DNA of 64,000 nucleotides from an uncultured virus (IMG/VR IMGVR_UViG_3300037067_020960). Lineage: Duplodnaviria; Heunggongvirae; Uroviricota; Caudoviricetes. Below are positions 1-36,374 of this stretch, one piece after another (position 1 is the first letter of the stretch; every line of letters begins with the position of its first letter). Under the pieces are notes generated by a model. It was not told where the DNA came from and ran no database searches. It saw only the letters and a list, made by a program, of their open reading frames with translations. The stretch lies in the IMG/VR virus record IMGVR_UViG_3300037067_020960, one strand, 5' to 3'. A program made the position numbers and the translations under genes.

Positions 1-3000
1 TATAAAGATTATTTGTATAGGTTGGCCAATTAGTTGCTCCATACCAAGTAACAAAATCAAGTGAATAATGATGAACAGCACTTCCAGGATAGCTAACCGA
101 GCCAGAATATCCCTGAGCAATCAAATGATAAATTTCATTTGTTTTAAACATCATATGATCCCAATATTGCATATTTGTAACTGCAGCAAAAAGTGTAAAA
201 TTTCCCCAATTTGCTTCAATATGAGGATCTGCAGAACATTGAGCTAAAACAATTTGATATGTGCTGGAATAATAAGAAGCAATACTTGCTACCCATTTAT
301 TTTCATCAGTATCCCAAATAAAATTGATTGGACCAATTATACCATTTTCAAAATAATTATGCGTTGTTGTGTTAATTATAATAGAAGCCCATCCCCAATT
401 TTCTCCATCAATAGAAAAACTATGAAATACTCTATTAATTTCTTCTGCTTCTGATCGTTGAGCTACATAAAACATGTGATATTCATTATCAGATTTTTTA
501 ATAATTTTCATATCTCTTACCAAATAAGAATCATATCCATAAGAACCATTTGGATCAGTTTCTCCATTAATTGGTCTATGTAACCATCCGACAAGATATA
601 TATTTTGATCATATATGTCTTTAAGATTTTTTGATTTCATCATATATTCCATATAACGATTTTTAGGAGATGTATTGTAATAATTATTATAACTAAACCA
701 AGCATGAATTTCATATTCATCATTTATTTTTTTGATTTGATTTAAATATATTTGTCTATCTGCTGCCCATACAATAGGATTGAAATTTCCGCCAATAATT
801 TCCGCAGTTGAAAGATCATTATAATCATCATATACTAAAATTCCAATTCCATTAGCAAAATTATATTTTTCTGAATAACTTGGAGGAGTAAAAAATTCAA
901 AAATGCTTAAAATTTTATCAGCATATTTTCCATAATCACATCTATATGAATGAATAATAGATGTAATACTATAAGACACATCAGTTTTTCCTTCATAAGA
1001 AATTTTCGAATAATCTCCTAATCGTGTAGGCATTGAAAATGGATATGAAATTAGATTAGGAGGATTTTTATATGTATTATCTTCACTTAAAACAGTTTTT
1101 TCAAATAAATTGAGTCCATCGTCCGTTTGTGCACATACACTATATTTTATGATTCTATCATTATCAGAACCACCAGATGATACTTTGTAAATAAATGTAT
1201 ATTTATATGTAGAATTTTTTGGGTTTTTTATTAATCCAATTGGAGATGCTCCATTTGTATGTATAGAAATATTTACACTATCATCATGAGAAATTATTTC
1301 TTCAGTAGTAGACCAATAATCATAATCACCAAAAAGATCAAAAGATTCACTTCGTTCTATTGAAAAATAATATGGACCAGCACCTAATTGTTTTTGATAT
1401 AAAATAAACCATTTGTCATTTGTTTTTCCAAAACAAAAACCATCTGTGTATAAATGAATATTTACGCCATTATTTGGAACAATCAATCGTGGATTTGTCC
1501 AGATTATTCCGTCAATCGATTCCATTGTAGAAATATTCCATCCTAAATCTCCCGGAGTAGTAGAAGTATTGTTATATGTTGAAATAAAACAAATAAATTT
1601 TTGATATTCTTTTATCCAATAAATTTTTGGAGAATATACATGATAAGGATTTTGCTGATCATTATTATACCAAGTAATTTGAGTTCGAATTTCAGAAGTA
1701 TACATTGTAGAAATTTGATCATAATAATTTATAAAATCTTTTGTTTTTTTAATTTGAATATTATACCATCTATTACTATGTCCATCAACAACCCCAATGT
1801 AATATCTATTCCAGTAAGTTAGAAATTCTCCATCAACGAATGGATTTGGAATAACACATGCACAATAATTTGAATCTTGTTTTGTGTTGTCAGGAATTGA
1901 TTGAATTGTATTTAAATTATTAGTCCAATTTAGTGTTATTGAATTATTGGGATATGATGAAGAATAATTTTGAAGAGTTTTTCCATATCTTGAAGTAATT
2001 ATATTCCCATCAATTTTTAATTGCATATTATCAGGGCAATATGGCCAAAAAAGGTAATCTTTTTCTTCTTCAATTTTTATATTTCCTGTAATTTTTATAG
2101 CAATGTTTCCAGCATCTTTATCTATTTGAATTGGCGTTAATTCTTGAATATTATTTTGATTTGTTAAAGATAGAGAATCTATATTTTTTTCATAAACCGA
2201 TTTACCTTTTTCAATTAATTCTTGAAATTCAAATTCTGTATGAATATCAATTGGATCAACAGTGAGTATTTCAGCTTTTAATTCTGTAAAATGTAATCCT
2301 GTAGCATAATTTGATGAAGGAGATCCTATTGGAGGTTCAATATAATCATGAGATAATACAGCACTTGATGTTATCATATTTGAAATATTTAAATGAATAT
2401 TATTTTGAATTTTTAAAATAGGATTTTCTTCAAGATTTTTTGTATCAATAATAATTGGAATTTTTTCTTCAATTCCAATTTGTGTAGGTGCTAAAGCAAT
2501 TTGTTGATTTTTAAAAATTTTTATTAGTTTTAATTCCATTTTCGAACCTTGAAAATCGGTAGGCATTAAACGAATGTAATTGCAATATTCTTTAATTTTT
2601 ACAATGTCATAATTATTTACATTAGTTTTACCAATTCCAATATAACCATCTTTATTTTTCCAATCGATTCCATTAAATGACGTTTGTATAAAACCATTTG
2701 TTGCATATCCATCCCCTGTATAAGGAAAAATATAAATTTCTTCAATGTAAGTAGTTCCAGGAAAAGAAGTTGTGATTAATGGATTTAAACTAGATACTCC
2801 ATCTGCTATAAAATTATTAATAAAATTTTCTTCTCTTAAACAATGATGTAATGAATGAAGATTCACATCTTCTAACCATGGATTGTAATAAGATGTGGTT
2901 TTAATACCTTCAATTGTAACATGTTGATTTATAGGACTTTGATCAAAAGAATTAGGATCAGATAAAATTAATCTATTGTCAAGTGAAAATTGTGAATATA

Positions 3001-3034
3001 AATCAAATTGTTGTTCTTTTACAGAATTACTCAT
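1..3034 (-). CDS. Large putative virion protein (partial, >1010 aa): N-terminal discoidin/F5-8C-like region, then beta-propeller-like Asp-box repeats
   Basis: Absent from the ORF track because it has no stop in the window. ATG at 3034 (MSNSVKEQQFDLY...). Frame read as open where checked, down to base 2. Motifs IQTSFNGIDW..YIRLMP, and S/T-x-D-G-x-x-W-type motifs (SIDGIIW, SIDGENW, SLDFVTW). Confidence 0.75.
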   Translation of the reverse strand, partial: MSNSVKEQQFDLYSQFSLDNRLILSDPNSFDQSPINQHVTIEGIKTTSYYNPWLEDVNLHSLHHCLREENFINNFIADGVSSLNPLITTSFPGTTYIEEIYIFPYTGDGYATNGFIQTSFNGIDWKNKDGYIGIGKTNVNNYDIVKIKEYCNYIRLMPTDFQGSKMELKLIKIFKNQQIALAPTQIGIEEKIPIIIDTKNLEENPILKIQNNIHLNISNMITSSAVLSHDYIEPPIGSPSSNYATGLHFTELKAEILTVDPIDIHTEFEFQELIEKGKSVYEKNIDSLSLTNQNNIQELTPIQIDKDAGNIAIKITGNIKIEEEKDYLFWPYCPDNMQLKIDGNIITSRYGKTLQNYSSSYPNNSITLNWTNNLNTIQSIPDNTKQDSNYCACVIPNPFVDGEFLTYWNRYYIGVVDGHSNRWYNIQIKKTKDFINYYDQISTMYTSEIRTQITWYNNDQQNPYHVYSPKIYWIKEYQKFICFISTYNNTSTTPGDLGWNISTMESIDGIIWTNPRLIVPNNGVNIHLYTDGFCFGKTNDKWFILYQKQLGAGPYYFSIERSESFDLFGDYDYWSTTEEIISHDDSVNISIHTNGASPIGLIKNPKNSTYKYTFIYKVSSGGSDNDRIIKYSVCAQTDDGLNLFEKTVLSEDNTYKNPPNLISYPFSMPTRLGDYSKISYEGKTDVSYSITSIIHSYRCDYGKYADKILSIFEFFTPPSYSEKYNFANGIGILVYDDYNDLSTAEIIGGNFNPIVWAADRQIYLNQIKKINDEYEIHAWFSYNNYYNTSPKNRYMEYMMKSKNLKDIYDQNIYLVGWLHRPINGETDPNGSYGYDSYLVRDMKIIKKSDNEYHMFYVAQRSEAEEINRVFHSFSIDGENWGWASIIINTTTHNYFENGIIGPINFIWDTDENKWVASIASYYSSTYQIVLAQCSADPHIEANWGNFTLFAAVTNMQYWDHMMFKTNEIYHLIAQGYSGSVSYPGSAVHHYSLDFVTWYGATNWPTYTNNLY

Positions 3035-3047
3035 AAATGAAATTATA
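3035..3047 (-). promoter_or_regulatory. -10 element TATAAT 7 nt before the ATG (leaderless-type promoter)
   Basis: Minus strand reads CAGG-TATAAT-ttcattt-ATG, with no Shine-Dalgarno. Confidence 0.5.
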
Positions 3048-3101
3048 CCTGTTCAGAATTAATCTTGATGAATTTTTATAGTAGATTTTTCTATACACTA
3101 T

Positions 3102-3148
3102 GGTGAAGAGAAGATTTTTGCCCTCGTGGCAAAAATCTTCTCTTCACC
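3102..3148. repeat. Perfect 21-bp inverted repeat with 5-nt loop CTCGT
   Basis: ggtgaagagaagatttttgcc-ctcgt-ggcaaaaatcttctcttcacc. Confidence 0.95.
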
Positions 3149-3510
3149 TCCGCCCTCACGAGCTCGTCTCGTGAAGCGAGGGATCAGATCGGCTTGTCCG
3201 ATCCCCGAGCGGGGGCGGATTGACTTTTTTCTCGCGCGCGTTATAATAATTTATTAATATTTTTCGTTGCTTCGCACGATTATTTTTACTAATTTTACTG
3301 ATTAGAATTTAGCTCACTTCGTTCGCTAGAGAAACACGATGCGGAGCATCGATGTTTCTCGATGTAGTAGTAGTAAGTAGTAGTATTTAATTAATATAAT
3401 ATAATATTAATTAATATTAATATAATACTAATAACGCGTGTGCGTATGCCTGCGTACGCGCGTGCTCACGTATGCTCGCGCATTATGCATCTGCGCGCGC
3501 TACAAGGGGT
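3102..3510. other. Structured non-coding island, candidate replication origin
   Basis: Several GC-rich hairpins, a nearly pure A/T tract (~3385-3433) and a CG/TG alternating tract (~3434-3500), lying between divergent genes at the coding-strand switch. Confidence 0.5.
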
Positions 3511-19290: not shown

Positions 19291-19400
19291 ATTATAGAAA
19301 AGTTCAGTATTTCATTTTTTAATTTATTAAAGGTAACGATTAAAATTAATATGAGTTGATGAATATTTGAATTAAAATTTCTTTTAAAGGATAAAAAAGG

Positions 19401-21333: not shown

Positions 21334-23106
21334 ATGATACCAGCACGATCAACTGAACAAATAGAACAAGCGATTAAAGAAGATATTCGCGATAATCGTC
21401 CAGATTTCGACTTAGAATCTGGTCCGATGCACGATGTTGTGGTTACGCCACAAGTTTCTTTAATTAAAAAAGTAGAAGATGATATTGAACATGCAAGTGA
21501 ATTAACTTCATTGAAATATTGGGATCAATTCTCAACTACTGAATTAGATGATTTTGCAGGAACTTATGGGATCACTAGACTTCAAGGACTAAAAGGAAGA
21601 ACAATTATCGCATTTGTAATGTATAACAAACCACAATCAGATATAAATATTCCTGCTGGCACAATTGTAAGTTTGCCTCCTGATCAAAAAATAAATGGTG
21701 AAAGTTTTAATTTTGCTACAATTGATGCTATTTTTTATCATGCAGTAGAATGCGATCAATTTTGCCAAGCTTCTGGAAATATTAAAAAATGGATTTTTAC
21801 TACTCCTGCTCAAGCGGTGAAAGCTGGATCATATTCAAATGGTGTTCAACCAAGAAAATTAACTCATTGCACTTTAGTTACTGGAATTGGTGAAATCTAT
21901 AATACCATTACTACTCGTGGTGGTACTGATATAGAAGATAATGAACATTTTGCCAATAGAATTTTATCTATAATGGGATACAACTCTATATTGACTCCAG
22001 AAGGGCTCAAAAAGTTCATATACGATAGTTTCCCTGATCAGGTTATAGATATCACCGTTGTCAAAGGAAATAAGGTTGCCAGAGCTCCCAATGTAAAGCA
22101 AGCTATTGATATTTATGTGATTGGTGAATATATGAAAAGTAAAGAAGAAACCTTTACATATGATGGATCTAGAAAATATAAAATGATTATGCAACCAGCT
22201 CTAGATATTTCTTCAGTTGTTGGAAATATCAACTACGCTGTTAATACTGACTATCGGTTAAGTAAAGATATTGCTAGTTTTTATCTTCCTGGATTAAATA
22301 ATTTTACACAAGAAGGTGCTGTGTCCGGTTCAATCAAATCAAATGATTCTCTTGTTTGGAATTTAACTACTGGGGGTAATATTCCTACAGTAAGTGAATC
22401 TATTGCAATCAAATATGCTTACAATGCTTTGATTCGTGATATTCAAGAAAAATTACAAGATGAATTAGATTTTATCGCTGTAGATGTTCTTGTAAGAGAA
22501 GGCATTATTGTTCCTATTTATATGGGATTTACTGTGACTTTAAAATCTATTTCTTATGATTCAAATACAGTTTATCAGAACATAGTGACTTCAATCCAAA
22601 AATATATCAATAAGAATAAATTTGGAGATAATTTAGCAACTTTAAACACAGATAAGATGCTGGATACAATTTTAAAAGAAGTTAGTGGAATTAACACAAT
22701 TAATCTTGATTATTTTAATAGAGAAAAGCATTTAGTTGTTACAATATCTGATGAAATAAATTTATCACTTAAAAGAGTTGGAAAAACGATTGAATTAAAA
22801 TGGAATTATGGAATAAGAGCTTCCGAAATTATCAATACTGATTCGGTAGGAATTTATCGTTCAGAAGATAATGGAATTACTTATACATTGATTAATACAG
22901 TGAGTGCTGCGCAATTAACATTTTTTGATGAACCAAATACTACAAATTTAGTTTACAAAATAGTGGTCACTACATCTTCAAAAGTTTTTAATTCAAATTT
23001 AGCAGATACATATTCAAATAAACCAAAAAGGATTGAAGAGATTGTATTGAAAGATGCAGAATATTCTTATACAGATTCAGAATTTATAAATGTGAGATTT
23101 ATATAA
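21334..23106 (+). CDS. Baseplate J-like / wedge protein
   Basis: LDDFAGTYGITR, IPAGTIV, A..AG..SN, GGTDIEDNEHFANR. Confidence 0.85.
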   Translation: MIPARSTEQIEQAIKEDIRDNRPDFDLESGPMHDVVVTPQVSLIKKVEDDIEHASELTSLKYWDQFSTTELDDFAGTYGITRLQGLKGRTIIAFVMYNKPQSDINIPAGTIVSLPPDQKINGESFNFATIDAIFYHAVECDQFCQASGNIKKWIFTTPAQAVKAGSYSNGVQPRKLTHCTLVTGIGEIYNTITTRGGTDIEDNEHFANRILSIMGYNSILTPEGLKKFIYDSFPDQVIDITVVKGNKVARAPNVKQAIDIYVIGEYMKSKEETFTYDGSRKYKMIMQPALDISSVVGNINYAVNTDYRLSKDIASFYLPGLNNFTQEGAVSGSIKSNDSLVWNLTTGGNIPTVSESIAIKYAYNALIRDIQEKLQDELDFIAVDVLVREGIIVPIYMGFTVTLKSISYDSNTVYQNIVTSIQKYINKNKFGDNLATLNTDKMLDTILKEVSGINTINLDYFNREKHLVVTISDEINLSLKRVGKTIELKWNYGIRASEIINTDSVGIYRSEDNGITYTLINTVSAAQLTFFDEPNTTNLVYKIVVTTSSKVFNSNLADTYSNKPKRIEEIVLKDAEYSYTDSEFINVRFI

Positions 23107-28124: not shown

Positions 28125-29135
28125 ATGAATGAAAATTATCATTTAATTCAAAAAATCGAAAATAAACCAATCACATTTCTTTATACAGTGCCATCATATG
28201 ATATGGTTGTGGTGAATCCACATAATAATAATATAGATCCGATGATTTCTTTCACATTAATTAAAAAAAACAATTTATATTATGTATTAAATGAATCAGC
28301 TCAATCTTTGAATGAATTCGTAACCAATCATAAAGATATTACGTGGCTGCTCGACTTCGAATTTTATGAAAAAAAAGAATCTTTAATTAATTTAGAAGAT
28401 ATTTTAGATGATGAACGTAAATTACAATCGTTTTTTTCTTTAATGAGAAGAAAACCAAACAAAGAAGTCTTAAAATATTTTTTTGATAATTTTTATAAAT
28501 ACACACAATCAAAATATGTGTATCGAACCATTATTGAATTTTGTTCATATTTTAAAATAAAAATTCCTGAAGAATATGAAAGAAAAATAGAATCTAATGA
28601 TTTAAGGAACTATGCTATCAGCTTAATAAAAAATAATTACGAAGTAACTGATTCATTAATAAAAGAATTGAAAGCTTATCAATGCGTTGAATGCGTGCAT
28701 ATGTATTTAAACCAACAAAAAATGCCCAAACAACAATTTGTGGATAAGATATTTGATGGAACGGACGCTTTGATTTATGATTTTTTTGAAACCTTATTTC
28801 AGGGATCATCGAAAATTACAACAGAAAAATTTTTATATAAATTTTTAACACCGATAATAGCGTTCATCTATGCTTTAGAACATTATAACAGAATGTTTAA
28901 ATTTGTTCCTGAAATTTTTTATGAAAAAATGTCCGTAGATAAAAAATTGGTTTATGAATATTTGATGTGCATCACACATTTAACACACACAGATAGTCAT
29001 CTTGAATTTCCTCTAAGACTTATGGATGTTATTTCTAAAGATCAATTTTACATGAATAAATTAAAAGAAAAAATTCCTCAAGAAAAATTAGAACAAGCAT
29101 TCGGAATGTTTTTATTATTTGGAAAGAAATCGTGA
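28125..29135 (+). CDS. Hypothetical helical protein; N-domain resembles that of the 24-aa repeat proteins
   Basis: KPITFLYTVP..FTL.KK.NLY..N..SL.E..W..DFEF aligns by eye with KPLEYLLTLP..FT..GKRGLY..N..TL.E..Y..QIEF. Confidence 0.6.
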   Translation: MNENYHLIQKIENKPITFLYTVPSYDMVVVNPHNNNIDPMISFTLIKKNNLYYVLNESAQSLNEFVTNHKDITWLLDFEFYEKKESLINLEDILDDERKLQSFFSLMRRKPNKEVLKYFFDNFYKYTQSKYVYRTIIEFCSYFKIKIPEEYERKIESNDLRNYAISLIKNNYEVTDSLIKELKAYQCVECVHMYLNQQKMPKQQFVDKIFDGTDALIYDFFETLFQGSSKITTEKFLYKFLTPIIAFIYALEHYNRMFKFVPEIFYEKMSVDKKLVYEYLMCITHLTHTDSHLEFPLRLMDVISKDQFYMNKLKEKIPQEKLEQAFGMFLLFGKKS

Positions 29136-30988
29136 ACTTATCAACCATTAAAATAAATAAATTTGGCAGTGCTACTCAATTAGATTTGATTACAGAAATT
29201 GTAGAATTCGATCATGGATTGGACACTGTCAAAACAACTGAGCATCATCAATTAGAATTTCCAGAAGTCACACAAGAAGTTGTAGATAATTCTTTAATGT
29301 TCTTTCATTCAGATCTCGATATGACAAAAATTTCTACATCTACGATTTCTCCTTTTTCAGCCAATAATAAATTACGTTTGAATATCATAGATAAAATGGT
29401 TTCATTTTCAAATACAAAAATGAGAGTGATTCGTAAATCAAAAACTCCTACTGTTAGTGCGTATCCTGTTGATAATGCTCAAGGATATAGTTATACATAT
29501 TCATCTGAAATTCCTGCTGATTATCATTGGGATTTAGTAGAGAATGGGATTACATGGAAAACTCATTGGAATTATAAAAAAGTTTATGAAGATACATCGT
29601 ATCATGATGAAAAAAATCAAATTTGGTATCATTGTGTAATCAATAATAATTCTATTAATTACGATATTGCAATAGAACTTATTGCTGACACAGGAATTTA
29701 TAGATCTGATTGGTATAATGTGACTCCTGGAGCAACTCAATATATTCCAATGAAAGATATTCCAATCATAGATGAAAGTATATTGAAAAATTATTATGAT
29801 GTTGGCTCAGCTGGTTTGGTCGTTACATCTTATGAATCAACAAACGATCGATTGAAATTGGTTCTTAGTAGAGATTTTAGTACTAAAACTTGTGGAGCAA
29901 TTATTGAATGTTCTAATGATTTATTTTTAACAACAGGAGAATTCATTCTTTCATCAACTTCAGCTACAACTAATTACATCAATGATTCTGATTGGGTATT
30001 CGATTATACACGAACTTTGAATACATACACATCGGGTGCTGCGATTGATTTTGATATACCAGTAATTTCTTCAGAAACAAGCAATCCGTTCACTGCTTTG
30101 GATATGAGATTAATTTATAAAGATACTGGTGGAGCGGGAGATTCATTTGATTGGAGGTTATCTGGCACGTCGTATACGATCAGTACTTCAGGCACCGCCG
30201 AAGTGGTTAAGGTAGCAGATATTTTGATCTCTGGCGATCCCAATGAAGCTTACACACTCCACATAGAAAATATAATAAATAAGGCAGCGATAGTTGGTGT
30301 AGAAGTAGTGAGAAAACGAGTAGGTTACTATGATTCTATCATAATTCAAGGATATTCTGATACTCAACAAGATTTTGATACTGTATTCGGAATTACACAT
30401 AGTTCAGCTTTTGATCATAGATATGCGTATGACAGAAAATGGTTAAGATCAGAAGAATCATTAATTTCAAGTGCAAATTGGTTGATGAAGCGTTCTTTAC
30501 CTTCGGGACAAAGTTTAACAACTACTGTGACATCTCATGTTGATTTGAATGTTGAATACGTTTTATCATCTGTGACCAATTTTTTTCCAACACCAATCAT
30601 AGAATATACATTTGGTACTAATGATATGACAGCTGTTAATGATTGGTATTTTCGTGAATATCGAGGCGATCAATATAAGGATATTGTTCATGCAAGAAAT
30701 GCTGGTAAGATTGTTTCTGTAATTCAAACTGTAAATCTGGAAAATTCGACAAAATTTCAATTCAAAGGATTAGGAAATTCAGCGGATTCAAAATATTTTT
30801 ATTTACAATCATTTAAAACAACTTATTTGAAATTCACAGATTTTAATCCTGTAGGAAACAAAATAGATTTTTATTCAGTAATTGAACCTACGGGACAAAG
30901 TTTTATATTAGGAAAAGAAAAATTAAAATTTTTGATAAAGAGTGTAGTTGCACAAGATATAAAAAATTCTGATATTTTAGGTGGATAG
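29132..30988 (+). CDS. Putative virion structural protein
   Basis: S/T/Y/D-rich beta-type composition; GTG start overlapping the previous stop. Confidence 0.55.
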   Translation: MNLSTIKINKFGSATQLDLITEIVEFDHGLDTVKTTEHHQLEFPEVTQEVVDNSLMFFHSDLDMTKISTSTISPFSANNKLRLNIIDKMVSFSNTKMRVIRKSKTPTVSAYPVDNAQGYSYTYSSEIPADYHWDLVENGITWKTHWNYKKVYEDTSYHDEKNQIWYHCVINNNSINYDIAIELIADTGIYRSDWYNVTPGATQYIPMKDIPIIDESILKNYYDVGSAGLVVTSYESTNDRLKLVLSRDFSTKTCGAIIECSNDLFLTTGEFILSSTSATTNYINDSDWVFDYTRTLNTYTSGAAIDFDIPVISSETSNPFTALDMRLIYKDTGGAGDSFDWRLSGTSYTISTSGTAEVVKVADILISGDPNEAYTLHIENIINKAAIVGVEVVRKRVGYYDSIIIQGYSDTQQDFDTVFGITHSSAFDHRYAYDRKWLRSEESLISSANWLMKRSLPSGQSLTTTVTSHVDLNVEYVLSSVTNFFPTPIIEYTFGTNDMTAVNDWYFREYRGDQYKDIVHARNAGKIVSVIQTVNLENSTKFQFKGLGNSADSKYFYLQSFKTTYLKFTDFNPVGNKIDFYSVIEPTGQSFILGKEKLKFLIKSVVAQDIKNSDILGG

Positions 30989-31030
30989 AATGACAAATAT
31001 TTCTGAAACATTAAAAGAAAAGAAATCTCA

Positions 31031-31684
31031 ATGGTAAAATTTACTGTCGATTATCTTAAAAATCTTTTTCAACATAACATCATGTGGCAAGATGCTAAAA
31101 AGAATCTGGATTTCTTAGATTCTTATGCCGAAAAAGATCCCAAAGCAATCGAAGAATTTCTTTCCACAATGGAACAAGCATACGATAAAGTTGTTCAGCT
31201 CATTGGAAATGTCCATTTCAAAGAAAAAGATTTACTTGGACGTTTACTAGAATGGAATGATATACCAAGCAATATTCATGATTTCTTTCCAGTCCCTGTG
31301 TATATATCTTCTGGTTCATCTGATGGAGATTCGATTGGAATCATGTTGTTTGAAGATGGTAAAAAAGAATTATTTGAAGGTAATACAGAAGCATCAGATG
31401 AAACTTATAAAATTGTAAATGAATTATTGGGAGTTGCTGATAAATGGGTAAAAATATATGCTCAACATGGAGTAAGGATAATACGACTTATTGAACGCAC
31501 TCAAAAGATTCCTGAAGGTATTTATGTGTCGCCTCGTAGAGATGTTGCTGAAGGATATTGGCATATCACAGAAGAAAAATATTTGTTTTCGTGTGAAATT
31601 CAAGAAAAATATGTCAGAAAAGAATCCGATATTGATTGGAAAATAATTGAAGATTGCAAAATGAGAAATTTTAAGATTCTTTAG
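31031..31684 (+). CDS. Hypothetical protein
   Basis: 217-aa ORF; the true start may be the out-of-frame ATG at 30990. Confidence 0.6.
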   Translation: MVKFTVDYLKNLFQHNIMWQDAKKNLDFLDSYAEKDPKAIEEFLSTMEQAYDKVVQLIGNVHFKEKDLLGRLLEWNDIPSNIHDFFPVPVYISSGSSDGDSIGIMLFEDGKKELFEGNTEASDETYKIVNELLGVADKWVKIYAQHGVRIIRLIERTQKIPEGIYVSPRRDVAEGYWHITEEKYLFSCEIQEKYVRKESDIDWKIIEDCKMRNFKIL

Positions 31685-32297
31685 TGCGATTTTTATATTC
31701 TTCTTGAGATACAATATCATGTGCTTTATTATAGTCATAGCCTTTTGTTTTCATTAACATCATCTCATTATATTCATGTATTAAAGTACCTTGCCATTCA
31801 TGATCTCTAACCATTCCATTTTCCATCCAAATTTCATCTTTTGGCACATAAGCATAAACATATCCATGACCACCTTCATGAAATCCTGAATCATATTTAT
31901 CACGAACAATTCTACCATCAACAAGATATACTTTGATTCCATGAATATTGCTATGCAATTTGATTCTTGGTTCTTCATTTTTCAAGGAGAGTTCATGATT
32001 ATTGCGTATTGGATTTTCTATTTCTTTTCTAACACGATAATAGGCTTCCCAAAAATCCTTTCCAGAACTCATTTCTTCAATTAATTTCATAGCAGCACGC
32101 AATTTAATTTCTTTTTCATATGGGTCTAACAGTTCAGAAAACCAAATTTCATCTTTGGGGATTAACTTCTCGAATTGATATGAAGTTCCGACGAGACAAA
32201 AATCTTGATTGTTAATAGATGATGCTCTAACTTGTGAATCATCTACAGTGTAAAGTCTATAACCTTGATGAGATTTCCAAAATTTTTTATTAAACAT
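31671..32297 (-). CDS. Hypothetical protein with internal duplication and HExxE motif
   Basis: Two copies of Y.VD...VR...IP/VPKDEIW; TLIHEYNE..LM...YxxAH suggests a metal site. Confidence 0.65.
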   Translation of the reverse strand: MFNKKFWKSHQGYRLYTVDDSQVRASSINNQDFCLVGTSYQFEKLIPKDEIWFSELLDPYEKEIKLRAAMKLIEEMSSGKDFWEAYYRVRKEIENPIRNNHELSLKNEEPRIKLHSNIHGIKVYLVDGRIVRDKYDSGFHEGGHGYVYAYVPKDEIWMENGMVRDHEWQGTLIHEYNEMMLMKTKGYDYNKAHDIVSQEEYKNRTKES

Positions 32298-32346
32298 TAA
32301 AAAATTTTAAATCATTTGACGTAAAATTTCTTCATGAGCATCTTTT

Positions 32347-32597
32347 GTTAACTACCCTTTAGGGTTTGAATTTAGTAGAGATCTCACCAATCTTAAAAGA
32401 TTCAAGATTAAAAGCAGGAGACTAGAGTGGCTAAGATCTTAACTGAAGAAAGGAAAGGTCGTTTGAAAGCAATTGAACCAACTAACTATGGTAGGTTAAA
32501 AGATACTAGAGGTGCTTCACTAGCCTCTTCTCCCTCTGTTGGTCAATCTCGAAGTGAGAAATTACCAGTTCTGAAAAGAACTGAGAATGGATCAGTA
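32347..32597 (+). ncRNA. Putative omegaRNA scaffold
   Basis: ~250 nt between the element end and the IsrB start, with hairpins (aatcttaa..ttaagatt; tagaggtgcttcactagcctct). Position matches IscB/IsrB loci. Confidence 0.7.
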
Positions 32598-33592
32598 ATG
32601 GTCCCAGTTTTAGATTTACATGGCAAGGCATTAAAGCCTTGCCATGTTAGAACTGCTCGAAAACTGATTCAAAAAGGATTAGTCAAGAGAAAATGGTTCA
32701 AAGGAATCATGGTGGTTCAAATGTTAAGAGAAACTGATTATGGGATTCAACCAATTGCTGTCGGAATAGATCCTGGTAGCAAAAGAGAAGGATTTACAGT
32801 AAAGAGCAAGAAGCACGTTTATTTGAACGTGTTGTCGGATGCTGTAACATGGGCGAAGGATAGATTAGAAATCAGAAAAAATCAGAGAAGGCATAGAAGA
32901 TTCAAAACACCATGTAGAAAAAATAAATTAAATAAAAATGGAACAAAACTGATCCCATCCATCAAAGCCAGATATCAGATTAAATTGAATGTTTTGAAAT
33001 GGTTTAAAAAATTATACCCCATTCAAGAAATTGTAATTGAGGATATAAAAGCAGAAACTCGTAAAGGAAAAATTAATAGAAGATGGAATATTAATTTTCC
33101 CCCTATTGAAGTCGCTAAGAATTGGTTTTATACAGAAGTGAAAAAAATAGGGAATTTAATTCTTAAAAGTGGATATGATACTTTCAATCATAGGAACCAA
33201 CTGGGATTGAAGAAATCTTCTGATAAGAAAAAAGAATCTTTTGAATCTCACAATGTAGATTCCTATTGTTTAGCTGATATGGTTATTCCAGGAAAACTTG
33301 ATAACAAATCTATTTTTAGAATTATCCCTATGAAATTTCGTAGAAGACAACTTCATGTATTAGAACCAATCAAGGGGAATATTAGGAAATCTTATGGCGG
33401 GACAATGAGCTTAGGAATTAAAAGGGGTCTATAGGAACCCACAATATTTTAGGAATTGGATATATTGGAGGAAATTCTTGGAAGAAAGTAGCCTTTCATG
33501 ATTTAAAAAATGGGGCTAGAATTTCTCAACGGTGTAAATTAAAAGATATTAAAATTTTGACATTCAATAATTGGAAAGTTCATGCTTTATGA
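32598..33592 (+). pseudogene. isrB: IsrB RNA-guided nickase (HNH-less IscB homolog), frameshifted near the C-terminus
   Basis: PLMP-like VLD..GKALKPCH, RuvC-I GIDPGSK, R-rich bridge helix RKNQRRHRR, RuvC-II VIEDI, RuvC-III SHNVDS, no HNH. TAG at 33432-33434, but the -1 frame continues IGTH..GYIGG..TFNNW to TGA at 33590-33592. Confidence 0.85.
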
Positions 33593-35754
33593 TTTTTTAT
33601 GAACGTGCAAATTTACAAAATTCAGATAGACAATATGGTTACATATTTTATGAGAATCATGTTAATTCATGTCAACTAAAATATAATATTTTACAAAAAC
33701 CATTTTGTCCAACAATTCAAAAATCTTACATTAATAATATTGCTTTCAAGCCATTAATAGCTTCTGCAAATTTTAATGAAGTCAAAATTATTTCTGGAAT
33801 GGTAATATATGATATTTTAGCAGAAAATTCTGATCTTGTTAATATGGCAATTAGTCAAAATATTAAAAAACTTTATGTAGCAAGAAATGATTTAGTTTAC
33901 ATTATTGATTTATCAACTATGACTTTAGAATCTACAATTACAATGTCAACAATTAAAATTGCGGCAAAATATCATCAATATGCAATTCTTGGAGAAATCA
34001 ATCACAGATTTTCTTTGGCGACTCTTATATTTCCCGTAAATTATGCAACTACATACACAATAAATGGTGGAACCGCCGATTTATCTAATTCTGATGCAAT
34101 TACAGGATTTACAATAAATCAATATTTGCCTACAAATACAATAGTTAAATTTTTATTTTCATTTGATGAAAAAACTACATGGAAATATTGGGATGGAAAT
34201 AGTTGGGAAACAGTTTTATTAACAGACATTAATACGCATGGAATGACGAAAACTGATATTGATTCCTTAACAGGAATTGCTTTGAATATGATTTTACCAG
34301 CTTTGACAAATAAAAAATTAGATGTGGCAATTTCATTGAATACAAGTGATAATACAAAAACTCCGATTGTATATGGATTTTCAACAAACCATTTATTAAA
34401 ACAAAAATATCAAGCAACAAGAACTACAGAAATAGGATTTATTACATCATATTTTATTGGCAGATGGTTATCATTAGCTGTTGATGAAATAAAACCTATT
34501 GGAACTTCAATCGTATATGAATATTCATATTCAGAAGATGGAGGATCTAATTGGACTTCGTATGATCTTTATGCAAGTGATGATGAATTAAGAATAATTC
34601 CAACTCATGGAAGTAATTCATCTTATGAAGATCAAATGAAAATTCGCATCACATTAAATTCTGATGATGAAGATGTCACACCAGTTATATCTGAACTAAG
34701 GTTGAAATACTATAATTTAGATACAACTCAAGTAGTAAGTTATCCTGGAACAATAATTGAAGGATATGATTCTACAATAGTATTTCAAATTCCTAAATGC
34801 GCCATGATTGAAGGAACTTTAGCATTTAGAATTGCTGTTTCTTATAACTCTGATATGACTACTCCTACATATTATGATTCATGGATAAATGGAACAAATT
34901 ACAATCCGGATATAAAATGGTATTATACAGATTCTTATGATGCAACAAATGATCCTAATGACGAATTATTAACAAATTGGTCTTATTGTGGAAATTTAGA
35001 TCCGCAACAAGAAGGGATTCCTGGAATTAATGGTGCTCCTCCGTCATCTGATGCGCAAACATATTATTTGAAAGTTAAATTGCCAGATACATATATTGGA
35101 ACTTTTTATGTAAAAATATATTCATGGAATGGTCTTACTGATGCTTATATAAATAAAAATTTCAAATATTATGATGAATTTATTTATATCCAAGATTATA
35201 AAAATTTAGGAGATGGAATAAAACCGTATGATTGGAATTTAGAAAATTCTACATTATTAACTTTATTAGATTCAAATATAACAAATTATCAAAAACTTAC
35301 AGCTTCAATTACTACAACTACAAATGATTTAACAATTTTTAATTGTCCATATTTTTATAAATATACGGAGATAGATAATTTTGATATCACTGTTTTGTTT
35401 ACTAATAAAAATTTATATCCGACATCGTATCTTACAGGATTAAAAATTCAAGATAATACGTATAGTGACAATTTGATTAGTATTTCTTCTCCTGATGCAA
35501 CTTGTGTTGTAGAAAGTTATATTGATGGAATTTTAGATATGACAAATTCAGTTAATGGAAATTATTCATATTTAAGAGCATCCCGAAATGGATCTACTTT
35601 TACTTTTTACGGAAAACAAGGAGTAAACGATTCATGGGTTCAAGTAATGATAGTTGAACGTTTAGATATCAGTGATTGTAAGTTAGGTTTATTTTTTAAT
35701 GCTCCCAATGATAGCACAAGAAATTATTTAGTTGAATATCTTAAAGAAATGTGA
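33589..35754 (+). CDS. Putative virion structural (tail/baseplate) protein
   Basis: FSFDEKTTWKYWDG, SEDGGSNW, KIRITL.S...TPVIS motifs. ATG 33589 lies inside the IsrB element end. Confidence 0.7.
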   Translation: MIFYERANLQNSDRQYGYIFYENHVNSCQLKYNILQKPFCPTIQKSYINNIAFKPLIASANFNEVKIISGMVIYDILAENSDLVNMAISQNIKKLYVARNDLVYIIDLSTMTLESTITMSTIKIAAKYHQYAILGEINHRFSLATLIFPVNYATTYTINGGTADLSNSDAITGFTINQYLPTNTIVKFLFSFDEKTTWKYWDGNSWETVLLTDINTHGMTKTDIDSLTGIALNMILPALTNKKLDVAISLNTSDNTKTPIVYGFSTNHLLKQKYQATRTTEIGFITSYFIGRWLSLAVDEIKPIGTSIVYEYSYSEDGGSNWTSYDLYASDDELRIIPTHGSNSSYEDQMKIRITLNSDDEDVTPVISELRLKYYNLDTTQVVSYPGTIIEGYDSTIVFQIPKCAMIEGTLAFRIAVSYNSDMTTPTYYDSWINGTNYNPDIKWYYTDSYDATNDPNDELLTNWSYCGNLDPQQEGIPGINGAPPSSDAQTYYLKVKLPDTYIGTFYVKIYSWNGLTDAYINKNFKYYDEFIYIQDYKNLGDGIKPYDWNLENSTLLTLLDSNITNYQKLTASITTTTNDLTIFNCPYFYKYTEIDNFDITVLFTNKNLYPTSYLTGLKIQDNTYSDNLISISSPDATCVVESYIDGILDMTNSVNGNYSYLRASRNGSTFTFYGKQGVNDSWVQVMIVERLDISDCKLGLFFNAPNDSTRNYLVEYLKEM

Positions 35755-35816
35755 GAATTAAAAATGTAACTTAAAATTTCTTTTTAAGTTAAAATTTTTC
35801 AAATTGGAGAAAAAGT

Positions 35817-36374
35817 ATGGGGCAATATGCAATAATAAAAAATTTGACACAATCAGATATATCAATTAACTTTAAGAGCACACAAGTTGATGATTTTGTT
35901 CTTGGTCCGGGAGAATCACAAAGAGTAGAAGCTTATCCTGAAATACTCCATGAAATAAAATATGGTGAAATAAAATATCATATAGATAAGGGACGTATTT
36001 CTGTTTCTTACACAGAAACAGGAGCTGTCGAAACATTATCCTTGGCAGATTTATCTGATTGCGATGGTTATGGCATAGGACATAATAATGTGGTGCGTGG
36101 TGATGACCCAAGAATTCAGGCAATTGGAAGCATTCCTGTGGAAGATAGTTTCACACTTACTTCAAATCAAATAAATGTTGCAAAATCTGTTATTTTAACT
36201 TTTACACCTTCGGCTGGTTATGAACCTAAATTATTACCCATTGGTGGAATTGAACAACAATATGGAATAGATTATACTGTCACAGGAACCACACTTTTGT
36301 GGGATGGTTTAGGTCTTGATGGTTTTTTAGAAATTGGAGAAATTTTAAAAGTTTCTTATAGGAGAGATGCATAA
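35817..36374 (+). CDS. Putative virion structural protein
   Basis: GGIEQQYGIDYTV.G..L.W...LE.GE.L.V.Y module typical of phage structural proteins. Confidence 0.65.
   Translation: MGQYAIIKNLTQSDISINFKSTQVDDFVLGPGESQRVEAYPEILHEIKYGEIKYHIDKGRISVSYTETGAVETLSLADLSDCDGYGIGHNNVVRGDDPRIQAIGSIPVEDSFTLTSNQINVAKSVILTFTPSAGYEPKLLPIGGIEQQYGIDYTVTGTTLLWDGLGLDGFLEIGEILKVSYRRDA

Follow-up and report, generated by a model that had tools for sequence, protein, structure and literature searches.

How can a phage carry an RNA-guided nuclease element inside the first codons of one of its tail genes and still provide that gene with a translation start? The question is raised by a stretch of 64,000 nucleotides (the window) from an uncultured member of the Caudoviricetes (IMG/VR record IMGVR_UViG_3300037067_020960), in which an element of about 1.25 kb (32347-33598) consists of an isrB gene and its omegaRNA, that is, a system of the OMEGA type (obligate mobile element-guided activity). 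We put at roughly 0.65 the probability that this IsrB-omegaRNA element lies within the 5' end of a late tail gene, has replaced the start of that gene and is now fixed and decaying; the anatomy of the element alone is considerably safer and very probably as described below.

In the current view, OMEGA nucleases assist the IS200/IS605 transposons of cellular genomes, and their persistence without the transposase TnpA, as well as their harmless insertion, is little described. The window offers a natural phage example, exact to the base, in which the source of the guide, the target-adjacent motif (TAM), the interrupted start and its replacement are all readable and the predicted N-terminus of the uninterrupted protein is borne out by an ortholog. 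The reconstructed site provides a concrete substrate for nick-driven homing by IsrB, and the arrangement suggests a route other than an intron or intein by which a selfish insert in a coding sequence becomes tolerable. The literature consulted in full text, which did not include the 2009 HEARO paper, described neither an OMEGA element re-coding a host start nor a link between TAM and start codon, and a term search of PMC9755519 returned nothing relevant. IsrB with its omegaRNA is said to have been presented as an OMEGA nickase by Altae-Tran et al. in 2021, and the HEARO paper reportedly described insertion beside ATGA/GTGA.

Excision in silico reconstructs the probable start of a tail-region gene

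The locus is composed as follows, all features being on the plus strand.

32322..32333, plus strand: promoter-like motif TAAAATTTCTTC, directly followed by ATG 32334
32334..32346, plus strand: orphaned start of the host gene, ATG AGC ATC TTT T (MSIF and one base), which reads MSIFC-stop as it stands
32347..32597, plus strand: omegaRNA scaffold, with a model match at 32347-32560 and then a variable 3' hairpin as far as the ATG of isrB
32355..32364, plus strand: remnant of stem-loop 1 (SL1; CCCT TT AGGG), in which the distal 4 pairs of the relatives are deleted
32598..33434, plus strand: main frame of IsrB, 278 codons (32598-33431) with a PLMP-like domain and a split RuvC (D/E/H/D), closed by a premature TAG (33432-33434)
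33424..33427, plus strand: run of four G, one base short of the continuous reading of the relatives
33428..33592, plus strand: C-terminal part of IsrB in frame 2 (SIGTHN...NNWKVHAL), with the stop TGA at 33590-33592; it aligns with the C-termini of the relatives and served as tblastn anchor
33589..33598, plus strand: last 10 bases before the TAM, ATG ATT TTT T (MIF and one base), the candidate substitute start and an imperfect direct repeat of 32334-32346
33599..33602, plus strand: ATGA at the TAM position of the right end, straddling host codons 5-6 (T|AT GAA) and not in the host frame; 33599 starts ATGAACGT
33599..35754, plus strand: body of the host gene, which has 721 codons counted from 33589 and codes for a tail-region protein; genes for a baseplate wedge (21334) and a tail fibre (36374) lie nearby

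The insertion point falls between base 13 and base 14 of the tail-region coding sequence. When 32347-33598 was deleted in silico, an open frame beginning MSIFYER was obtained, continuous with the open reading frame (ORF) 33589-35754, whereas the present host ORF, starting from ATG 33589, reads MIFYER. An earlier prediction made on this DNA (the original prediction) had proposed both that excision would give MSIFYER in frame and that the last bases of the element supply a substitute start, and the sequence agreed with it on the two counts.

The product of the host gene had no match in Pfam or PHROG, and word-index protein searches with this protein and with its ortholog returned only the queries themselves and one match of 12% coverage. 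In an exhaustive HMMER search a single full-length ortholog was retrieved: P0123, a protein of 719 aa that starts with MSIFNE, is encoded on a contig of 14,125 bp and matches query residues 2-721 over its residues 3-717 (E 1.1e-157, 41% identity). The excised frame (MSIFYE) aligned to P0123 without gaps, whereas the present frame (MIFYE) left a one-residue gap at Ser2. This serine is encoded solely by the left flank, while the I and the F are also encoded by the end of the element. The original prediction had further named element-free relatives with MSIFYER as a test; the start of P0123 speaks in its favour, at the protein level only. The joint 32346>33599, which would mark an empty allele, was absent from the contigs of four sequencing runs. 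Three joints listed in those contigs had sides of 20-21 letters with unrelated ends and were taken as spurious.

The stranded start directly follows a promoter-like motif, whose exact 12-mer is present in two copies in the window, the other one lying 3 nt before the baseplate wedge gene at 21334. The relaxed motif TAAAATTWCTTY was found 5 times against 0.74 expected, a count reached in 0 of 100 shuffles, and its sites (19373, 21319, 32322, 35772 and 60622) are all on the plus strand, upstream of plus-strand genes. Near-copies touch the ATG codons of the gene at 28125 and of the divergent gene at 32297, and the region between the divergent gene and the stranded start is an imperfect palindrome (32295-32314 / 32317-32336), one arm of which contains the following feature.

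32298..32309, minus strand: promoter-like motif TAAAATTTTTTA, abutting the ATG (32297-32295) of a divergent gene of 208 aa

The genes that carry the motif at their ATG (21334, 28125, 32297 on the minus strand, 32334 and 60635) have no strong Shine-Dalgarno sequence, unlike most genes of the window. Judging from these features, the motif probably acts as a late promoter whose mRNAs have little or no leader, and the genes concerned may form a class of leaderless late genes. In the form TAAAATTT(C/T)TT(C/T) the motif recurs at 19373, 21319, 28111, 32298 (minus strand), 32322, 35772 and 60622.

Structure of the omegaRNA and the left boundary

A total of 80 metagenomic loci, encoding IsrB relatives of 43-56% identity, was fetched, and the 380 bases 5' of the isrB start were aligned for the window and 51 loci. 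Conservation set in at the column of 32347 (GTTAACTACCC), where 43 of the 51 relatives begin with GT[CT]A, and the flanks to the left were unrelated between loci. Of the 33 consensus pairs that RNAalifold returned for 25 sequences, 27 show compensatory changes. The window retains 28 of the 33, with one U-U and four pairs missing through deletion of the distal half of SL1, and it shows a double change of its own, from C-G to U-A, at columns 162/240. The minimum free energy of the omegaRNA region had a z-score of -4.55.

A covariance model, R1, was then built from 24 relatives with exclusion of the window, using positions only up to 32560. Searched against the whole 64 kb, R1 gave a single match, at 32347-32560 on the plus strand and over the full length of the model, with a score of 136 bits and an E-value of 3.7e-33, R1 E-values being rough by the tool's own statement. 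The predicted left boundary at 32347 is exact, being fixed independently by the alignment of the relatives and by the window-free covariance model, and it agrees with the left end that the original prediction gave to the element. Since the host motif and the MSIF codons now precede the omegaRNA, any guide must come from the stranded start bases; the putative guide in the left flank and the ATGA after the right end, both part of the original prediction, can be read in the sequence.

In the IsrB of Desulfovirgula thermocuniculi (DtIsrB), nicking does not require SL1, which has been linked to transposition (PMC9581776). The omegaRNA also accounts for a feature of deposited proteins: many database 'IsrB proteins' of 390-430 aa (P0004-P0009, P0012, P0014, P0016 and others) carry an N-terminal extension (…GRLKT.EPT.RGR…VGQSRREKL) that corresponds to translated omegaRNA. 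Since other relatives have stops in this region and the region covaries as RNA, the extension is to be read as RNA and not as protein, and its appearance in the IsrB alignment is due to translation of the omegaRNA region.

The IsrB gene and its frameshift

An ORF at 32427-33434 lies between two divergent genes, and its conserved part starts from ATG 32598 (MVPVLDLHGKALKPC...). The N-terminal PLMP/RRXRR domain was recognised by Pfam (RRXRR, PF14239, E 2e-24, residues 2-156), the PLMP motif reading ALKPC in the window versus PLMPC in the relatives, and no HNH family was found in the protein by Pfam at E 0.01. Homologs numbered 1696 among 2103 candidates. The best solved relative was the IsrB of PDB 8DMB (E 4.9e-30, residues 2-274), whereas IscB chains aligned only to residues 4-113 or 4-155 of the window protein. 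All RuvC columns that are invariant in a 19-sequence alignment are retained, namely D115 (GIDPGSK), E205 (IEDIK) and H275/D278 (SHNVDS), and these catalytic residues align to 8DMB. By its domain architecture, catalytic residues, lack of HNH, upstream structured RNA and TAM motif, the locus is a predicted member of the IsrB/omegaRNA family whose reading frame is no longer intact.

The IsrB relatives read ...KRGS(V/I)... without interruption in the 19-sequence alignment, so that one base is missing from the window at the G run 33424-33427, and the final 56 IsrB codons (SIGTHNILGIGYIGG...NNWKVHAL) are found in frame 2. The letters of this 1-nt frameshift recur exactly in Logan contigs of two studies: X1, a groundwater metagenome (2022) that is probably the source sample of the window (piece 32701-35500), and X2, a landfill metagenome (2018) from a different study (piece 33345-33521). 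Since contigs of two studies carry identical letters, including those of the G run, an assembly slip is unlikely. The main frame stops short of the end of the TAM-interacting (TI) domain, and in DtIsrB truncation of a motif of this domain abolished nicking (PMC9581776). The frameshift argues against nicking activity of the predicted main-frame product, and on this point the active homing nickase of the original prediction was not supported. The proposed ATGA coupling of the IsrB stop with the host start stood only in part: ATG 33589 does overlap the TGA at 33590-33592, but this TGA ends IsrB in frame 2 alone, and because the main frame ends at 33432-33434 the coupling needs a shift of frame.

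The right end and the TAM

IsrB TAMs have been reported as NTGA, TTGA and ATGG (PMC9581776), and the motif is present in the window as ATGA at 33599, the putative TAM. In most relatives, the sequence 3' of the IsrB C-terminus consists of a double stem, whose inner hairpin is SL1-like, then a tail of about 8-11 bases and then an ATG, which lies 18-27 bases (mostly 21-23) past a GGGTTTCC-like motif. Junctions were collected from 57 loci with a C-terminal anchor and 200 downstream bases; 29 distinct junctions passed the motif filter, and the 28 loci omitted were without the hairpin or escaped the regular expression. The bases after the tail were ATGA in 19 of the 29 junctions and ATGG in 10.

The window has no right-end hairpin and reads NNWK followed by GTTCATGCTTT, ATGATTTTTT and ATGAACG. 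Because the hairpin is missing, the right boundary could be placed at 33588|33589 or at 33598|33599. The former is favoured by the habit of the family, in which the ATG of the TAM is a start codon and the IsrB stop lies in the TAM, and the latter by the promoter-like motif, the reading frame and the Ser2 of the ortholog. With high confidence, we take host sequence to resume at 33598|33599.

Transposon ends and present state of the element

No Y1_Tnp domain, the mark of TnpA, was found among the 29 other ORFs of the window put through Pfam, as the original prediction had it, and a crude HUH/Y regular expression applied to 242 small ORFs of the 80 loci gave nothing, though this is not a real test for TnpA. 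Most IsrB loci are without TnpA (Meers et al. 2023, 10.1101/2023.03.14.532601). Both transposon-end hairpins are reduced or missing, SL1 having lost its distal 4 pairs and the right-end double stem being gone. The element thus has neither intact end hairpins nor a detected TnpA and is, by this reading of its ends, not a mobilisable IS200/IS605 transposon. In view of the frameshift, the reduced hairpins, the missing TnpA and the missing empty allele, the element is more likely fixed and decaying than actively homing, and we consider such decay probable.

The element may have arrived by the route usual for its kind, either TnpA-mediated insertion beside ATGA or, once an RNA-guided nick had been made, copying of an occupied allele, and the insertion would owe its survival to the start codon provided by the element end. 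At present, omegaRNA, broken isrB and host gene would share a single transcript, translation of the host protein would begin at 33589 with loss of Ser2, and neither mobilisation by TnpA nor nicking would be expected from the present sequence.

A direct repeat at the ends of the element

The element end ATGATTTTTT (10 bases) resembles the left flank ATGAGCATCTTTT (13 bases), from which it differs by being one codon shorter and by one synonymous C>T change. The insertion adjoins ATGA, yet this imperfect 10/13-nt direct repeat flanks the element. In a post-hoc test on the 983 ATGA sites of the window, a likeness of this kind was reached by 0.4% of the sites (p ~0.004), and 0.8% reached 7/10 ungapped matches.

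Likeness between left flank and right tail was rejected as a rule of the family, as 16 of 18 two-ended relatives had at most 4/10 matches, L002 had 5/10 and only L045 showed a repeat. In L045 a perfect 11-nt repeat, GGAGACACAAC, ends the left flank (321-331) and stands again directly before the TAM ATGG (1610-1620); it carries a Shine-Dalgarno-like GGAG for a downstream ORF of 181 codons. The repeats of the window and of L045 may stem from duplication at a nick or else from conversion or selection at a later time. A second candidate rule, that the right-end tail supplies a Shine-Dalgarno sequence, was also set aside as weak (7 of 29 against a background of about 10%).

Alternative explanations

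Several observations weigh against an element that entered a coding sequence, replaced its start and is now decaying. An Rfam scan of 31500-34500 with E-values up to 10 returned no HEARO or omegaRNA family, only snoRNA and sRNA matches at chance level, and because this curated library gave nothing the fit of the omegaRNA is to our own model and not to a published one. P0123 is the only ortholog, and it supports the element-free site at the protein level only. ATG 33589 has no good Shine-Dalgarno sequence, the best purine run upstream of it being GGAAAG at -15 to -10, though most genes of the window have one. The check for TnpA covered part of the window's ORFs and, of the 139-kb contig, no sequence beyond the window (~75 kb). 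Both parts of IsrB are open and the omegaRNA pairs are intact, as they might be if the element had functioned until recently or were still functional, for instance by -1 slippage on G GGT. Finally, in 22 of the 29 loci the ATG of the TAM begins an ORF that is 50 codons or longer, compared with 31 of 128 nearby ATGs in other frames, so that IsrB-family elements mostly sit directly before start codons, and in several relatives the IsrB stop lies inside the TAM, as TGA 33590 would; by analogy with the family, ATGA 33589 would be the TAM and MIFYER the native start. This link between TAM ATG(A/G) and downstream start codon merits a systematic survey across the family.

The last point amounts to an element wholly upstream of the gene, with the ATG of the left flank being there by chance. 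The jumbo-phage relative L082, in which the stop of IsrB and the ATGG start of the following gene share bases, speaks for such an arrangement, as does the closest protein, P0004, whose end ...GGGL is consistent, at the level of the protein sequence only, with a stop in the TAM. Yet P0123 starts with MSIF, including the serine that only the left flank encodes, and aligns gaplessly solely to the excised frame; the promoter-like motif abuts ATG 32334 as it abuts the starts of three other genes; and ATG 32334 would, under such an arrangement, open an ORF of 8 codons. An upstream element is, on this balance, very improbable. Still less credible, and hardly to be entertained, is a self-splicing intron or an intron-borne endonuclease with the mRNA restored by splicing. 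Many phage introns likewise lie within the 5' end of a gene that seems important to the phage, but no group I or group II family matched 31500-34500 with E-values up to 10, the RNA fits the scaffold associated with IsrB from one end to the other, and the in-frame substitute start makes splicing unnecessary.

A cassette that still homes is a more serious candidate, although we regard it as unlikely. In such a cassette, IsrB would be produced by -1 slippage at G GGT, restoring ...KRGS..., the guide would be 32327-32346, empty alleles of co-infecting relatives would be nicked beside ATGA, and termination of IsrB at TGA 33590 would couple translation of the host gene. It would fit with the intact core pairs of the omegaRNA, including the compensatory pair specific to the window, with the retained RuvC catalytic columns and the two open IsrB segments, and with the stop/start ATGA overlap; the shift required is indeed -1, for which tRNA-Gly could re-pair from GGT to GGG. 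The loss of the hairpins used by TnpA is consistent with a TnpA-independent life, SL1 being dispensable for nicking in DtIsrB (PMC9581776), and a review includes 'non-restorative homing' into co-infecting phages among the categories that it discusses (PMC13565253, Table 1). On the other side stand a frameshift fixed in two studies at a site of which the relatives have no equivalent, the lack of a canonical slippery heptamer, contigs of four runs that hold no empty allele, and a guide of only about 13 nt if transcription begins near the ATG, as the spacing of the motif suggests. The direct repeat raises a separate question, which concerns only the origin of the tail and is compatible with a replaced start in a decaying element: the right end may lie at 33588, with 33589-33598 representing a duplication of target-site type, produced when a nick some 10-13 nt upstream of the TAM was followed by copying without resection, the right copy having later lost one codon and gained the C>T change. 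The nick made by DtIsrB falls 8-11 nt upstream of the TAM (PMC9581776). The likeness of the repeat, the perfect 11-nt repeat of L045 and an IsrB stop that would sit in a host-derived ATGA, as stops sit in the TAM of several relatives, are in favour of a duplication. We nevertheless hold it doubtful in the face of the 16 two-ended relatives without such a repeat, of the tail of L045, in which nothing was added since its 23 nt from the hairpin motif are the normal family length, and of the T-rich end of the window, which is like the T-rich tails of other members such as L029 and L035; moreover, IS200/IS605 transposition makes no target duplication. The boldest combination of these ideas, to which we would give little weight, is a TnpA-independent phage OMEGA element that would spread only by RNA-guided nick-and-copy, in which a duplication of the 10-13 bases between nick and TAM would re-supply a translation start while slippage-made IsrB and re-initiation at ATGA would tie in the expression of the host gene. 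If true, the duplicated bases would be a start codon in the window and a Shine-Dalgarno sequence in L045.

Comparison with known systems

Among the closest known systems is DtIsrB (PDB 8DMB; Hirano et al. 2022, PMC9581776), with which the element shares the PLMP/RRXRR N-terminus, the split RuvC, the lack of HNH and a C-terminal TAM-interacting domain, as well as a structured RNA of about 250 nt directly upstream on the same strand with a flank-derived guide, and an NTGA/ATGG-type TAM 3' of the target. Unlike DtIsrB, the window element is phage-borne, has a frame broken before the end of the TI domain, keeps an SL1 of only 4 pairs without the second transposon-end hairpin, and stands within a coding sequence, replacing its start codon.

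The IscB/TnpB elements of IS200/IS605, which combine peel-and-paste transposition with RNA-guided restoration, resemble the window in having an omegaRNA bounded by the transposon end, in the orientation of the upstream promoter, in usually having no TnpA nearby and in a target formed by the joined flanks and the TAM (10.1101/2023.03.14.532601; PMC13565253). They differ from it in that the window has lost its end hairpins and shows an imperfect 10/13-nt repeat, whereas the family makes no duplication, and in that the element would spread between co-infecting phages and not between sister chromosomes. Phage homing endonuclease genes are described in general terms in PMC13565253. The element resembles them in being a selfish nuclease cassette that sits within or next to an important phage gene, where its cost is neutralised; unlike them, the target would be recognised through RNA, and the neutralisation would be achieved by a substitute start and a one-residue change of the N-terminus instead of splicing or intergenic placement. 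Homing endonuclease genes of phages are free-standing or intron-borne and include those of nicking HNH enzymes such as I-HmuI.

IsrB-like genes are rare in deposited phages, being present in 18 of 50,697 records. Phages with IsrB/IscB-like genes were LR745208.1, Bacillus phage vB_BspM_AgentSmith and the Microcystis phages LMM01/MaMV. An omegaRNA of R1 type precedes the gene in L082 (LR745208.1, an uncultured 485-kb phage; E 2.7e-28) and in L081 (AgentSmith; E 1.6e-23). Like the window element, the RRXRR genes of deposited phages adjoin structural or small genes; unlike it, they have intact IsrB frames, and they are labelled 'RRXRR domain-containing' or hypothetical, none of them as OMEGA. The L082 locus (2273-3510) contains an intact IsrB with its omegaRNA, without an end hairpin, at a gene junction rather than inside a coding start; the ORF upstream reads into the element, with a consequently altered C-terminus, and the IsrB stop shares bases with ATGGTGA, the start of a cold-shock-domain-like gene.

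The phage, its sampling and minor features of the element

Protein databases place the window on a contig of 139,329 bp. With a G+C content of about 29% the window is AT-rich and phage-like, and the host phage is T4-like and AT-rich; PHROGs annotated in the window a baseplate wedge subunit (21334), a ribonucleotide reductase, an SbcC-like nuclease and a tail fibre protein (36374). Megablast of 31000-36000 against GenBank phages gave no match, IMG/VR scans with the host protein, IsrB and P0123 as queries confirmed no relative, and the window itself holds no further copy of IsrB or of the element. For 30500-35500, Logan contig pieces without any difference from the window were present in both X1 and X2, so the same phage strain with the same insertion occurs in the two metagenomes.

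Two minor features lie within the isrB coding sequence. One is a hairpin that was not seen in the aligned relatives and could either mark the 3' end of the omegaRNA or act as a brake on IsrB translation.

32619..32646, plus strand: perfect 11-bp hairpin (CATGGCAAGGC ATTAAA GCCTTGCCATG) with a 6-nt loop, in the PLMP-coding part, 21 nt into the isrB coding sequence

The other is the sequence TAAAATTTTGAC at 33550-33561, in the part coding for the IsrB C-terminus, which lies 27 nt upstream of ATG 33589 and matches the promoter-like motif at 9 of 12 positions, either because the host gene has an internal promoter there or by chance in AT-rich DNA.

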